A stretch of DNA of 64,000 nt from Escherichia coli (GTDB lineage: Bacteria; Pseudomonadota; Gammaproteobacteria; Enterobacterales; Enterobacteriaceae), in NCBI RefSeq assembly GCF_002854065.1, contig NZ_CP024147.1; one strand, given 5' to 3'. A program made the translations under genes and the position numbers. Positions 1-36,278 of this stretch are shown piece by piece. Numbering within the stretch: the first letter of the stretch is position 1; the number at the start of each line of letters is the position of its first letter. Below the pieces are notes generated by a model. The model was not told where the DNA came from. It ran no database searches and was given only the letters and a program-made list of their open reading frames with translations.

Positions 1-445
1 GCAGCGGATAAAGTTCATCCGGCCAGTCATCCGGCAGCACCAGACGGCGTTCATCCGGCAGCCCTACCGGAATCAAACCGTACATATCGCGCACTTCGCG
101 CTCGCCCCACACCGCCGCCGGAACGCGCGGCGTCACGGACGGATACTCCGGTTTGTTGGCATCAACTTCGACGCGAACCGTTACCCAACACTTGGTGCCC
201 TTCTCCATCGACAGCACGTAATAAACGGCGTAATGACCATTCAGTTTGCGTTCGTCGTTACCAAACAGTACCGACAGCCAGCCACCCTGTTTGTAGTAAA
301 GAAACTCCACCACTTCCGGCAGGTAGTTCACCTTTACGGTGACAGTCAGCTGATCTTTGGTCTGCCAGGCGTGGTCCAGCACGACGCCCGGAAATGCCTC
401 ATTCAGCGCGGCGAGATAATGTTGACCTAATTTTTCTTCAGACAT
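1..445 (-). CDS. hycE: Formate hydrogenlyase hydrogenase-3 large subunit, N-terminal part; gene continues past window start
   Basis: Reverse translation from ATG at 445 gives MSEEKLGQHYLAALNEAF..., recognised HycE N-terminus; no stop before window edge. Confidence 0.9.
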   Translation of the reverse strand, partial: MSEEKLGQHYLAALNEAFPGVVLDHAWQTKDQLTVTVKVNYLPEVVEFLYYKQGGWLSVLFGNDERKLNGHYAVYYVLSMEKGTKCWVTVRVEVDANKPEYPSVTPRVPAAVWGEREVRDMYGLIPVGLPDERRLVLPDDWPDELYPL

Positions 446-462
446 GCTCAAACTCTCTTTAA

Positions 463-1386
463 TCACGCCGCCAGCAAGGAGACGAACGCTAAAAATGCAA
501 AGCCAAACCCAGCCCAGGTAATGCGCGGAGTAATATCAAGACGCAGACGGGCCATGCTGTTTTCGAACAGCGCGATAACCAGGACGCCGACCACCAGTTT
601 GACGATGGCAATCACCAACGCCAGCAGCAGCCCACCGACGGTGAAGGTTTCCATTTGTCCCCACGGAATAAACACCCCGACGAACATCTGCAGCACCACC
701 AACTGTTTCAGGCTGATACCCCATTTCATGACGCCAAAGCCGCTGCCGCTGTACTCAGAGAGCGGACCTTCCTGCAACTCCTGCTCGGCTTCCGCCAGGT
801 CGAACGGCAGTTTTCCCATTTCGATAAAAGTGGCGAACGCACAGGCACAAAGCGCCAGCACCAGCGGGATGCTCTGGCTCAGCGGCCAGTGATAAACGGT
901 GTCGGTGATGTTGCTGATGTTGGTGGAACCGGCAACCTGTGCGGCAACCCACAGACCAAGCAGCAGCATCGGTTCGACCAGCACGCCAAGCATCGCTTCA
1001 CGGCTCGCGCCGATAGCAGTAAACGGGCTACCGGTATCCAGACCGGAAATGGCAAAGAAGAAACGCGCGATGGCAAAGAGATACAGTAAGGTGATCAAAT
1101 CGCCCAGTTGCGGCAGCGGAGAACCAACGGTCACCACCGGCAGCGCAGTAGCGATAGTCAGCATGACGCCCACCATCACATACGGCGTCAGGCGGAACAC
1201 CCAGCCGGAGGCATCCGGGCCAACGCTCTGACGCCCCAGCAGTTTGATAATGTCGCGATACTCCTGCAACACGCCCGGCCCGCGACGGTTATGCAAGCGG
1301 GCGCGCGCCACGCGGGTTATACCGGAGAGCAGCGGCGCAACGGCAAATAACACCAGCGCCTGAATTAACGGATATAAAACACTCAT
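463..1386 (-). CDS. hycD: Formate hydrogenlyase membrane subunit HycD
   Basis: 307-aa ORF, polytopic membrane protein, expected position in hyc operon. Confidence 0.9.
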   Translation of the reverse strand: MSVLYPLIQALVLFAVAPLLSGITRVARARLHNRRGPGVLQEYRDIIKLLGRQSVGPDASGWVFRLTPYVMVGVMLTIATALPVVTVGSPLPQLGDLITLLYLFAIARFFFAISGLDTGSPFTAIGASREAMLGVLVEPMLLLGLWVAAQVAGSTNISNITDTVYHWPLSQSIPLVLALCACAFATFIEMGKLPFDLAEAEQELQEGPLSEYSGSGFGVMKWGISLKQLVVLQMFVGVFIPWGQMETFTVGGLLLALVIAIVKLVVGVLVIALFENSMARLRLDITPRITWAGFGFAFLAFVSLLAA

Positions 1387-32747: not shown

Positions 32748-33656
32748 TTAAAAATACCCCTGACGTTTTTTCAGCTCCATAGACCCCGCCTGGTCGCGAT
32801 CAATCACGCGGCCCTGACGTTCACTGGTGGTGGAAACCAGCATCTCTTCGATGATCTCCGGCAGTGTTTGTGCATTTGACTCCACCGCACCGGTCAGCGG
32901 CCAGCAGCCCAGCGTACGGAAACGCACCATCCGTTTTTTGATCACTTCGCCCGGTTGCAGGTCGATACGGTTGTCATCAATCATCATCAACATACCGTCG
33001 CGTTCCAGAACCGGACGTTCCGCAGCGAGATACAGCGGCACAATGTCGATATTTTCCAGCCAGATGTATTGCCAGATATCCTGCTCGGTCCAGTTAGAGA
33101 GCGGGAAGACGCGGATGCTTTCGCCTTTGTTAATTTGCCCGTTGTAGTTGTGCCACAGCTCCGGGCGCTGATTTTTCGGATCCCAGCGATGGAAGCGGTC
33201 ACGGAAAGAGTAGATTCGCTCTTTAGCGCGGGATTTCTCTTCGTCACGGCGCGCACCACCGAAGGCGGCATCAAAACCGTATTTATTCAGCGCCTGTTTC
33301 AGGCCTTCAGTTTTCATAATATCGGTATGTTTCGCGCTGCCGTGCACGAATGGATTAATCCCCATCGCCACGCCTTCCGGGTTTTTATGCACCAGCAGCT
33401 CGCAGCCGTAGGCTTTCGCCGTACGATCGCGGAACTCATACATCTCGCGGAATTTCCAGCCGGTATCGACATGCAGCAACGGGAAAGGCAGCGTACCTGG
33501 ATAAAACGCCTTGCGCGCCAGATGCAGCATGACGCTGGAATCTTTACCGATAGAGTAGAGCATCACCGGATTTGAGAATTCTGCCGCCACCTCGCGAATA
33601 ATGTGGATACTTTCCGCCTCCAGTTGCCGCAGGTGAGTAAGTCGTTTTTGATCCAT
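32748..33656 (-). CDS. cysD: Sulfate adenylyltransferase subunit 2
   Basis: 302-aa ORF, PAPS-reductase-like fold. Confidence 0.9.
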
Positions 33657-33907: not shown

Positions 33908-34945
33908 ATGTTTTCCGCATTGCGCCACCGTACCGCTGCCCTGGCGCTCGGCGTATGCTTTATTCTCCCCGTACACGCCTCGTCACCTAAACCTGGCGAT
34001 TTTGCTAATACCCAGGCACGACATATTGCTACTTTCTTTCCGGGACGCATGACCGGAACTCCTGCAGAAATGTTATCTGCCGATTATATTCGCCAACAGT
34101 TTCAGCAAATGGGTTATCGCAGTGATATTCGGACATTTAATAGTCGGTATATTTATACCGCCCGCGATAATCGCAAGAGCTGGCATAACGTGACGGGAAG
34201 TACGGTGATTGCCGCTCATGAAGGCAAAGCGCCGCAGCAGATCATCATTATGGCGCATCTGGATACTTACGCCCCGCTGAGCGATGCTGACGCCGATGCC
34301 AATCTCGGCGGGCTGACGTTACAAGGAATGGATGATAACGCCGCAGGTTTAGGTGTCATGCTGGAATTGGCAGAACGCCTGAAAAATACGCCTACCGAGT
34401 ATGGTATTCGATTTGTGGCGACCAGCGGCGAAGAGGAAGGGAAATTAGGCGCTGAGAATTTACTCAAGCGGATGAGTGACACCGAAAAGAAAAATACGCT
34501 GCTGGTGATTAATCTCGATAACTTAATTGTTGGCGATAAATTGTATTTCAACAGCGGTGTAAAAACCCCTGAAGCAGTAAGGAAATTAACGCGCGACAGG
34601 GCGCTGGCAATTGCGCGTAGTCATGGAATTGCCGCAACGACCAATCCGGGTTTGAATAAAAATTATCCGAAAGGCACTGGGTGTTGTAATGACGCAGAAA
34701 TATTCGACAAAGCGGGCATTGCTGTACTTTCGGTGGAAGCGACTAACTGGAATCTTGGGAATAAGGATGGTTATCAGCAACGCGCAAAAACAGCCGCATT
34801 CCCTGCGGGAAATAGCTGGCATGACGTAAGACTGGATAATCAACAGCATATTGATAAGGCACTTCCAGGAAGAATAGAACGTCGCTGCCGTGACGTTATG
34901 CGGATAATGCTACCACTGGTGAAGGAGCTGGCGAAGGCGTCTTGA
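33908..34945 (+). CDS. iap: Alkaline phosphatase isozyme conversion aminopeptidase
   Basis: 345-aa ORF with signal peptide and M28 peptidase features. Confidence 0.85.
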   Translation: MFSALRHRTAALALGVCFILPVHASSPKPGDFANTQARHIATFFPGRMTGTPAEMLSADYIRQQFQQMGYRSDIRTFNSRYIYTARDNRKSWHNVTGSTVIAAHEGKAPQQIIIMAHLDTYAPLSDADADANLGGLTLQGMDDNAAGLGVMLELAERLKNTPTEYGIRFVATSGEEEGKLGAENLLKRMSDTEKKNTLLVINLDNLIVGDKLYFNSGVKTPEAVRKLTRDRALAIARSHGIAATTNPGLNKNYPKGTGCCNDAEIFDKAGIAVLSVEATNWNLGNKDGYQQRAKTAAFPAGNSWHDVRLDNQQHIDKALPGRIERRCRDVMRIMLPLVKELAKAS

Positions 34946-35070
34946 TGGGTTTGAAATGATGACTCCCGTGCCTGCAGGAAATCAATGCCACCTGAAACAG
35001 AGAATAAAAAAGGGTGCAGGAGGCCAAACCATCACAATTCAATACGCGGGGTTTTACCCCCGCGTGGTGG

Positions 35071-35223
35071 CTACTTCTTCGATTCGTAAGCGAGAACTGC
35101 CTTAAACTCCATACCACGCTCTCTGATACTCAACTCACATAACGAGTCGCCTACCATGAGCGTGAATCCCAGTACTGTACAACACAGTACTATGATTGCC
35201 ACAAGGGCATATTTTGTTAGCAT
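35071..35223 (-). CDS. Hok-family type I toxin (hokX-like), intact 50-aa ORF
   Basis: [50 protein letters not shown]: TM helix plus conserved SLCEL...LAYES C-terminus; GGGAGG SD 6 nt upstream. Confidence 0.75.
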
Positions 35224-35430
35224 GTCTTGCCTCCCTGCAAAGAAGAGACTAACATCCGAATTGCTACGTTCGAACGCGAGCCTCAGGTTGATAGAAATAT
35301 CGCCTGGGGCTTTTGTCCATCTGGAACCTCGCGAATGCTTAACGCCAGACAGCCTCAAGCACCCGACGCCATTCTATACCTGATAATTCTTCCAGCGGCG
35401 TTCACGTTTAAAATCAGGAATGCTGCTCGC

Positions 35431-35470
35431 AAAATAAAAACGCCCCCATCATTTCTGACAGAGGCGTTTA
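35431..35470 (-). terminator. Likely cysJIH operon terminator
   Basis: Minus strand hairpin (aacgcctc...gggggcgtt) followed by TTTTTATTTT just downstream of cysH stop. Confidence 0.4.
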
Positions 35471-36221: not shown

Positions 36222-36242
36222 AGATTCCTCACTGTTTGCCTT

Positions 36243-36278
36243 GCCTGATGCGACGCTCACGCGTCTTATCAGGCCTAC
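36243..36278. repeat. REP (repetitive extragenic palindrome) element
   Basis: gcctgatgcgacgctcacgcgtcttatcaggcctac in cysH-cysI spacer. Confidence 0.5.

Follow-up and report, generated by a model that had tools for sequence, protein, structure and literature searches.

A probable chromosomal hokG (hokX)/sokX type I toxin-antitoxin module adjoining cysH in Escherichia coli and its interrupted mok-like leader frame

Genes at the locus and previous descriptions

The DNA considered here, called the window, is a stretch of 64,000 nucleotides from Escherichia coli (RefSeq assembly GCF_002854065.1, contig NZ_CP024147.1). The genes of interest are ordered as cysD (32748..33656, minus strand), iap (33908..34945, plus strand), the toxin gene hokG (minus strand), then cysH, cysI and cysJ. 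The original prediction had assigned a hok/sok-type module to 35071-35430; its core does lie there, while the 3' untranslated region of the toxin mRNA (35070..35005), with a hairpin and the fbi element, extends beyond the left coordinate. Towards cysH the module is delimited by an element that does not belong to it:

35438..35469, minus strand: intrinsic terminator of cysH, the module boundary

From its sequence, this terminator is predicted to insulate the hok promoter from cysH read-through. In the cysH-cysI intergenic region (36234..36275), a REP-like palindrome gives sub-threshold matches to the Rfam family naRNA4 on both strands (33.6 and 23.2 bits, with a gathering score of 59.5). No tRNA was found in the 64-kb window.

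The locus is already known, having been catalogued, named and studied as HokG, hokX or sokX. In RefSeq, the protein WP_000956458.1 ("Hok/Gef family protein") is annotated here in XJ34 (100% identical), in O157:H7 and in the B2 strain ABU 83972; in UniProt it is called "Putative protein HokG" (HOKG_ECO57), and it occurs on at least 1000 contigs. A survey of AIEC strains called it a homologue of "hokX in E. coli B". For Almendros et al. (2014; PMC3903273), the hok sok system served to mark how the CRISPR-I locus is arranged; they state that only strains with the E2 (K-12-type) cas variant lack it at cysH, and a 2025 survey found hok and sokX adjoining cysH in 90% of urinary isolates (PMC12736100). 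The discovery value of the locus is thus small, as RefSeq annotates it, UniProt names it, its occurrence with respect to CRISPR-Cas I-E has been mapped, its mRNA is edited and its peptide is reported as toxic. The practical value lies in correct annotation: K-12, with its sokX remnant, is exceptional, and most E. coli hold an intact toxin gene at this site. That K-12 has only sokX annotated at the cysH position, as originally stated, is borne out by the K-12 annotation.

The toxin gene and its product

The toxin gene and its ribosome-binding site are located as follows:

35071..35223, minus strand: hokG (hokX) coding sequence, 50 amino acids plus stop, identical to WP_000956458.1 and to UniProt HOKG_ECO57
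35230..35235, minus strand: hok Shine-Dalgarno (SD) sequence GGGAGG, whose partner in the fold of the full-length mRNA is CUCUUC (nt 116-122)

The Hok-like peptide originally read on the minus strand is found exactly as described, from the ATG at 35223 to the stop at 35071 (50 aa), and has Pfam and Rfam matches; the strong SD is likewise there, at 35235..35230, 6 nt 5' of the ATG. In a profile search the peptide covers the whole HOK_GEF model of Pfam (PF01848, positions 1-42 of 42, E=6.3e-10), and the Pfam and Rfam matches of the locus are, as sequence scores, far above chance. The NCBIfam models are less generous: the Hok subfamily model gives 53 bits against a cut-off of 89, and the HokA equivalog model 39.5 against 73. 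Since both scores fall under the curated cut-offs, the name HokA was rejected and should not be given to this gene.

The alignment with Hok of plasmid R1 was inspected for inactivating substitutions, and none emerged at the positions considered: the seven residues that a preprint (bioRxiv 10.1101/2025.08.07.668861) treats as conserved, as well as Tyr48, are all present. With an offset of -2, R1 residues C16, T18, L30, C31, E32, E41, Y48 and E49 correspond in HokG to C14, T16, L28, C29, E30, E39, Y46 and E47, and the N-terminal hydrophobic helix is present too. Among eight alleles, the segregating sites in hok are 9 synonymous and 2 non-synonymous, for 34.7 and 115.3 sites, respectively, a pattern indicative of strong purifying selection, although the sample is small. 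All this bears on the idea that the reading frame is a chance ORF or a mis-annotation and that there is no gene at all, an idea whose sole support is the small size of the ORF. Against it stand the Pfam and Rfam matches, purifying selection, the edited transcripts detected in isolates and the presence of the ORF in 4220 of 5426 complete genomes, so that it retains next to no credibility.

mRNA editing and toxicity

The coding sequence holds one predicted site of A-to-I editing by TadA:

35086..35088, minus strand: codon 46, UAC (Tyr), with predicted TadA site A35087 giving Cys46; it is the sole UACG of the transcript

This UACG sits in a predicted hairpin loop. In a 2025 study, whose primers match the window locus, hokG mRNA was detected and found to be A-to-I edited at 10-37% in 10 out of 10 urinary isolates; because the only UACG of the transcript is that of Tyr codon 46, editing of hokG gives Cys46. 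Across Hok proteins Cys46 is either encoded in the DNA or produced by editing, the latter pattern having been described for HokC, HokD and HokE, and in HokB a Cys29-Cys46 disulfide is required for toxicity.

As to toxicity, the exact HokG peptide was cloned as construct 46_982 (plasmid LRP171) in the arabinose-inducible toxicity panel of a 2025-26 preprint (bioRxiv 10.1101/2025.08.07.668861). Out of 45 constructs tested, the text of that preprint names only 19_179, 60_1482 and 69_1540 as non-toxic. We infer that the HokG peptide is toxic, since 46_982 is absent from the three named in the text; the assay is one of overexpression with a standardized SD. The earlier suggestion that this copy may be a functional chromosomal toxin, for which induced expression had been proposed as a check, is supported to this extent by that preprint. 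Earlier work is reported to have found no post-segregational killing by chromosomal hokA, hokB and hokC.

The hok mRNA and its structured leader

The transcript and its elements are placed as follows:

35371..35376, minus strand: -10 box of the hok promoter, TAGAAT, 6 nt 5' of the inferred +1 G (35364)
35005..35364, minus strand: full-length hok mRNA of about 360 nt, with its 3' end just past a U6 run (35011..35006); both ends inferred
35208..35364, minus strand: structured hok leader, Rfam RF01794, full model 1-157
35351..35364, minus strand: tac element, mRNA nt 1-14, GGGUGCUUGAGGCU, pairing with nt 340-353 in the minimum free energy (MFE) structure
35012..35025, minus strand: fbi element, GGCCUCCUGCACCC, pairing with tac and closing the full-length mRNA
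35045..35064, minus strand: 3' UTR hairpin, CGCGGGGGUAAAACCCCGCG, from the predicted fold

The +1 position was derived from the start of the Rfam model and from the alignment to hokE and R1. The TAGAAT box is unchanged in all eight alleles examined, with variable sequence further upstream, and the corresponding boxes of hokE (TAAGAT) and of R1-type hok (TATGAT) are at equal spacing from +1; the poor -35 suggests that the promoter is weak. At the other end, position 35005 is the point where homology with cas3-carrying genomes ends.

The match to RF01794 (105.3 bits, gathering score 59, E=2.8e-24) is the sole above-threshold Rfam match in the whole 64-kb window. Although this family is called "sok", it models the hok leader, because the match is in the hok sense and ends at the hok start. 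A leader of roughly 200 nt had been expected upstream of the toxin; it does exist and is structured, with a length of 141 nt from the +1 at 35364. The inferred mRNA folds with an MFE of -140.5 kcal/mol (z = -5.2 against shuffled sequences), and the proposed search for tac/fbi structures finds the 5'-3' closure in the MFE structure, as a duplex with a dG of -24.5. The helix persists, with changes on both of its sides, in IS-free hokE (GGGUGCCU with AGGCACCU) as well as R1-type hok (GGCGCUU with AAGCGCC). In the predicted folds, the hok SD and AUG both lie within a local hairpin. The 3' UTR hairpin is likely to be the protective 3' end of the processed mRNA; when the mRNA is folded truncated after this hairpin, the 5' end is freed and nt 1-10 pair with nt 23-32, giving neither a clean tac/ucb arrangement nor a confident placement of ucb and dcb.

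The Sok antisense RNA

The antisense RNA that the original prediction expected in the leader, whose promoter and terminator it could not place, can be located together with its promoter and a putative terminator hairpin:

35263..35320, plus strand: Sok (SokX homologue), 58 nt, by homology to K-12 sokX (b4701)
35227..35255, plus strand: Sok promoter read from the sequence, -35 TTGCCT (35227..35232), 17-nt spacer, -10 TAACAT (35250..35255)

The alignment to K-12 sokX, proposed as a check, places Sok in this interval with 53 of 58 nucleotides identical to the annotated RNA, from which the Sok ends were transferred. Sok is complementary throughout to nt 45-102 of the hok mRNA, and its predicted fold is a long hairpin with CUUUUGU directly behind it (dG -23.7, z = -4.05). 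The TAACAT box lies 7 nt 5' of the annotated sokX start, so positioned that the promoter overlaps the hok SD region. This promoter is unchanged in all 12 sampled genomes and is also kept in K-12.

A generic promoter scan flagged one site only, TTGCCA-16-TAGCAT (35196..35223, plus strand), inside the hok ORF. As the Sok promoter it was rejected, because K-12, from which the site is absent, has an annotated sokX and because TTGCCT/TAACAT fits the annotated Sok start. The site spans the first hok codons and has an upstream TG; as read from the sequence, it is a possible second antisense promoter in hok-intact strains, whose longer RNA would extend over the hok SD and AUG.

The most variable patch of this near-invariant locus, 35256..35283 (leader nt 82-109), corresponds to the Sok 5' tail and its target; it includes a polymorphism at codon 19 of the leader frame described below (stop or CAA) and a 1-nt indel. 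Strain LS4 joins the leader patch of the window to a B2-type ORF, which suggests recombination inside the locus.

Leader reading frames and the mok question

In the hok family, an overlapping mok frame is normally expected in the leader. A long out-of-frame mok as in R1 was sought among the leader reading frames and none was found, so that the expectation of a canonical mok fails; what the leader does contain is an SD-led AUG opening a frame that is cut at codon 19. Two short frames are relevant, and the hok frame itself is open upstream, for 95 codons from a TTG:

35264..35320, minus strand: leader ORF 1, the mok-equivalent, AUG 35320..35318, SD GAGG 35330..35327, 18 codons, TAG 35266..35264, recognized by comparison with hokE and hokG alleles
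35217..35255, minus strand: leader ORF 2, 12 codons, passing through the anti-SD/SD hairpin to a UAA that overlaps the hok AUG (AUGCUAA)

The GAGG and AUG of ORF 1 are conserved about 98-100 nt 5' of hok, in hokE and in the hokG alleles. The frame that they open runs for 62 codons in hokE, overlapping the toxin gene, and for 34 codons in 5 of the 12 sampled hokG genomes, where it ends 7 nt into hok; in the other seven (the window, O157:H7, B2 and others) it is cut at codon 19 by TAG or TAA. The claim that the module is intact holds for the toxin ORF, which is whole, and calls for a caveat as to the mok-like leader frame of the window allele. ORF 2 starts 8-9 nt past the ORF 1 stop (8 nt in the window) and is present in 12 of 12 sampled genomes, its stop remaining UAA or UGA; on the other strand, its initial ATGTTA reads as the Sok -10 box. 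ORF 2 as the only mok-like element is a reading that was rejected, because the SD-led AUG at 35320 emerges from the comparison with hokE and other alleles of hokG.

Data from R1 (PMC9841398) show that Hok is no longer translated, and toxicity is lost, when mok is stopped prematurely upstream of hok; translation of mok as far as the hok SD is enough, and what lies past the hok start is dispensable. Given these data and the cut frame, three outcomes are conceivable: the mini-ORF suffices, Hok is translated directly, or the allele is silent.

If the allele is silent, the ORF would be toxic when forced, native Hok would not be made and the locus would be an expressed, harmless remnant like most K-12 hok loci. 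This would agree with the TAG at 35266..35264, which interrupts a frame that in hokE, as in 5 of the 12 sampled hokG genomes, continues through the hok start region, with the loss of toxicity that premature mok stops upstream of hok bring about in R1 (PMC9841398), and with earlier work that judged chromosomal hok loci inactive. It agrees poorly with the conservation of Hok, which is alike in both allele classes: the protein of strain 042, with the 34-codon frame, is identical to those of B2, O157 and the window, with the cut frame, and the seven segregating sites of the cut-frame class, counted from the allele alignment, are all synonymous. Moreover, the 12-codon ORF, which begins 8-9 nt past the stop, would still take ribosomes across the SD hairpin as far as the hok AUG, and in R1 translation of mok is required no further than the hok SD (PMC9841398). 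The argument from selection is weakened by the recombination between leader and ORF seen in LS4; nevertheless, silencing of the locus appears unlikely.

According to another possibility, Hok translation is independent of mok, with ribosomes loading directly on GGGAGG after refolding of the mRNA and the leader ORFs being incidental. The strong hok SD at ideal spacing and the stop polymorphism of the leader frame are in line with it, and the Sok -10 box on the opposite strand can account for the invariance of ATGTTA. However, folding predictions place the hok SD and AUG within a local hairpin, R1 hok has a good SD and yet requires mok (PMC9841398), and the alleles compared all end the 12-codon ORF with UAA or UGA, though at a position that doubles as a synonymous Leu site in hok. 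Taken as the full account, with the leader ORFs devoid of any role, this too is improbable.

What we tentatively propose for the HokE/HokG subfamily is that Hok translation is either coupled to the 12-codon mini-ORF, with ribosomes terminating at the hok AUG after reinitiation 8-9 nt past the ORF 1 stop, or mok-free, because 7 of the 12 hokG genomes have a cut frame and yet Hok is under purifying selection. This proposal may well prove wrong. If true, mini-ORF coupling or mok-free control would represent a natural variant of hok translational control. The polymorphic leader stop offers naturally occurring alleles with which to gauge the extent of mok that a hok locus requires, a matter of specialist interest in the regulation of type I toxin-antitoxin systems.

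Distribution, CRISPR-Cas and insertion sequences

The hok ORF and 3' UTR are found in 4220 of 5426 complete E. coli genomes (about 78%), essentially at full length in 3419; about 800 genomes have partial matches, mostly broken inside the 3' hairpin at 35049, and about 1200 lack hok, as K-12 does. At least 660 of the 5426 complete genomes (B2, IAI39, CE10 and others) have iap joined straight to hok with no CRISPR-Cas in between, as the window does. The iap-hok junction of the window (34946..35004) is found at 99% identity or more in five only, namely XJ34, XJ6-3, CUWW06, GDSC2227PM and PapRG-06-5, and the hok allele of the window is 99.6% identical to that of O157:H7, which has cas genes.

Since hok adjoins cas3 in many strains, a functional link to CRISPR-Cas was considered. 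It is rejected here because the window is devoid of cas genes, because hok occurs both with and without cas (PMC3903273) and because hok has been reported as not enriched near defence systems (bioRxiv 10.1101/2025.08.07.668861). Type I-E CRISPR repeats gave no match in the whole 64-kb window, allowing up to three mismatches, and PADLOC defence models gave no match.

The 3' hairpin point, at which about 17% of the carrier genomes break, with the consequent separation of fbi from the mRNA, is also where insertion sequences are found. In strain WP4-S18-ESBL-08, IS421, of the IS186 family, lies inside the GC hairpin of the hok 3' UTR (GGGGG-N5-CCCC), and in K-12 IS186 lies at the homologous hairpin of hokE. 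The target consensus of IS186 is GGGG(N6-7)CCCC, which the motif of the hok 3' hairpin fits. The hairpin is a hot spot at which IS186-family elements insert. The toxin gene itself is rarely disrupted; an example is strain PSJ-42, with an IS1 (comparison segment 1567..2393) within the hokG coding sequence.

Identity of the locus and proposed mechanism

From the whole of these data, the locus is very probably chromosomal hokG (hokX)/sokX, a type I toxin-antitoxin module of the hok/sok family belonging to the HokE subfamily. At the level of predicted elements the set is complete except for a canonical mok, comprising Hok, the structured leader, Sok with its promoter and terminator, and the tac/fbi closure.

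On this basis, transcription from the weak promoter (TAGAAT) would yield an RNA of about 360 nt, closed by pairing of 5' tac with 3' fbi and with both the hok SD and its AUG sequestered in the local hairpin. By analogy with the R1 paradigm, slow 3' trimming to the GC hairpin would free tac and allow the leader to refold, and ribosomes translating the short leader ORF or ORFs would then melt the SD hairpin so that Hok could be made. Again as in R1, the 58-nt Sok, from a promoter overlapping the hok SD, would pair with leader nt 45-102, a target that spans the upstream leader ORF and borders on the site where ribosomes would bind for the 12-codon ORF, and this pairing would lead to a block of translation and decay by RNase III. 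According to published work on hokG and HokB, TadA edits a fraction of the transcripts, changing codon 46 from Tyr to Cys; a Cys29-Cys46 disulfide in the periplasmic tail could follow, and Hok inserts into the inner membrane and is toxic.

Comparison with known hok/sok systems

K-12 sokX (b4701) is at the same locus adjoining cysH, and its promoter, leader and Sok are nearly identical to those described here. K-12 keeps this sequence through the hok ATG and then diverges into the sequence upstream of the E2-variant cas3, whereas the window has the complete hok ORF and 3' UTR and lacks CRISPR-Cas. The hok promoter, leader and ATG retained by K-12 (comparison segment 3720..3960, between cas3 and cysH) point into the cas3 upstream region; in E2-type strains, transcription from this promoter and antisense SokX could in principle influence cas3 expression.

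The hokE/sokE module of K-12 (b4415/b4835) encodes a peptide 78% identical to HokG (39/50), and the two proteins fall in the same cluster, number 46, of the preprint cited above (bioRxiv 10.1101/2025.08.07.668861). The two leaders align throughout, with the -10 box at equal distance from +1, and hokE shares with hokG the UACG at codon 46 and a 3' GC hairpin that has been hit by an IS186-family element. They differ in genomic site, which is ybdK-entD for hokE and iap/cas3-cysH for hokG; in the mok-like out-of-frame ORF, which reaches 62 codons in hokE of IS-free strains whereas the corresponding hokG frame is cut at codon 19 here; and in the antisense RNA, with sokE and the hokG Sok diverging in the 5' region (43/58 identical). 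The cognate duplex is predicted to be much more stable than the heterologous one (-120 against about -70 kcal/mol). In many genomes RefSeq annotates an 89-aa "hypothetical protein" (WP_002430445.1, WP_009008364.1; segments 411..680) antisense to the hokE leader and start, which is probably a spurious call over the sokE/hokE leader. The O26 strain RM10386 carries a tandem duplication of hokE.

The alignment to hok/sok of plasmid R1, another of the checks proposed, reveals a peptide 41% identical over 41 aa and an architecture of the same kind: a weak hok promoter, an RF01794 leader, tac/fbi, a 3' hairpin and a cis-encoded antisense Sok with a promoter overlapping the hok translation-initiation region, a promoter that we take to be the positional homologue of the one described here. 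The conserved Cys, Thr, Leu-Cys-Glu, Glu, Tyr and Glu residues are shared, and Hok of R1 has 52 amino acids against the 50 of HokG. The 70-codon mok of R1 begins adjacent to the Sok 5' end, whereas the only SD-led leader AUG of hokG is found at the Sok 3' end of the target and its frame is interrupted. The mok gene of R1 is out of frame with hok. In an R1-type IncFII plasmid used for comparison (344..559), the mok ATG shares the frame of hok, so that Mok and Hok form a fusion frame of 71 codons, and RefSeq annotates in it only a truncated Hok of 33 aa. R1 is a plasmid system, whereas the hokG locus is chromosomal.

Finally, hokB/sokB of K-12 shares with hokG the Hok family, the TadA-dependent recoding of Tyr to Cys and the Cys29-Cys46 chemistry implicated in toxicity, with the roles of the two positions exchanged: in HokB codon 29 is edited and Cys46 is encoded in the DNA, whereas in HokG Cys29 is encoded in the DNA and codon 46 is editable. 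Persistence linked to Obg and ppGpp has been described for hokB.
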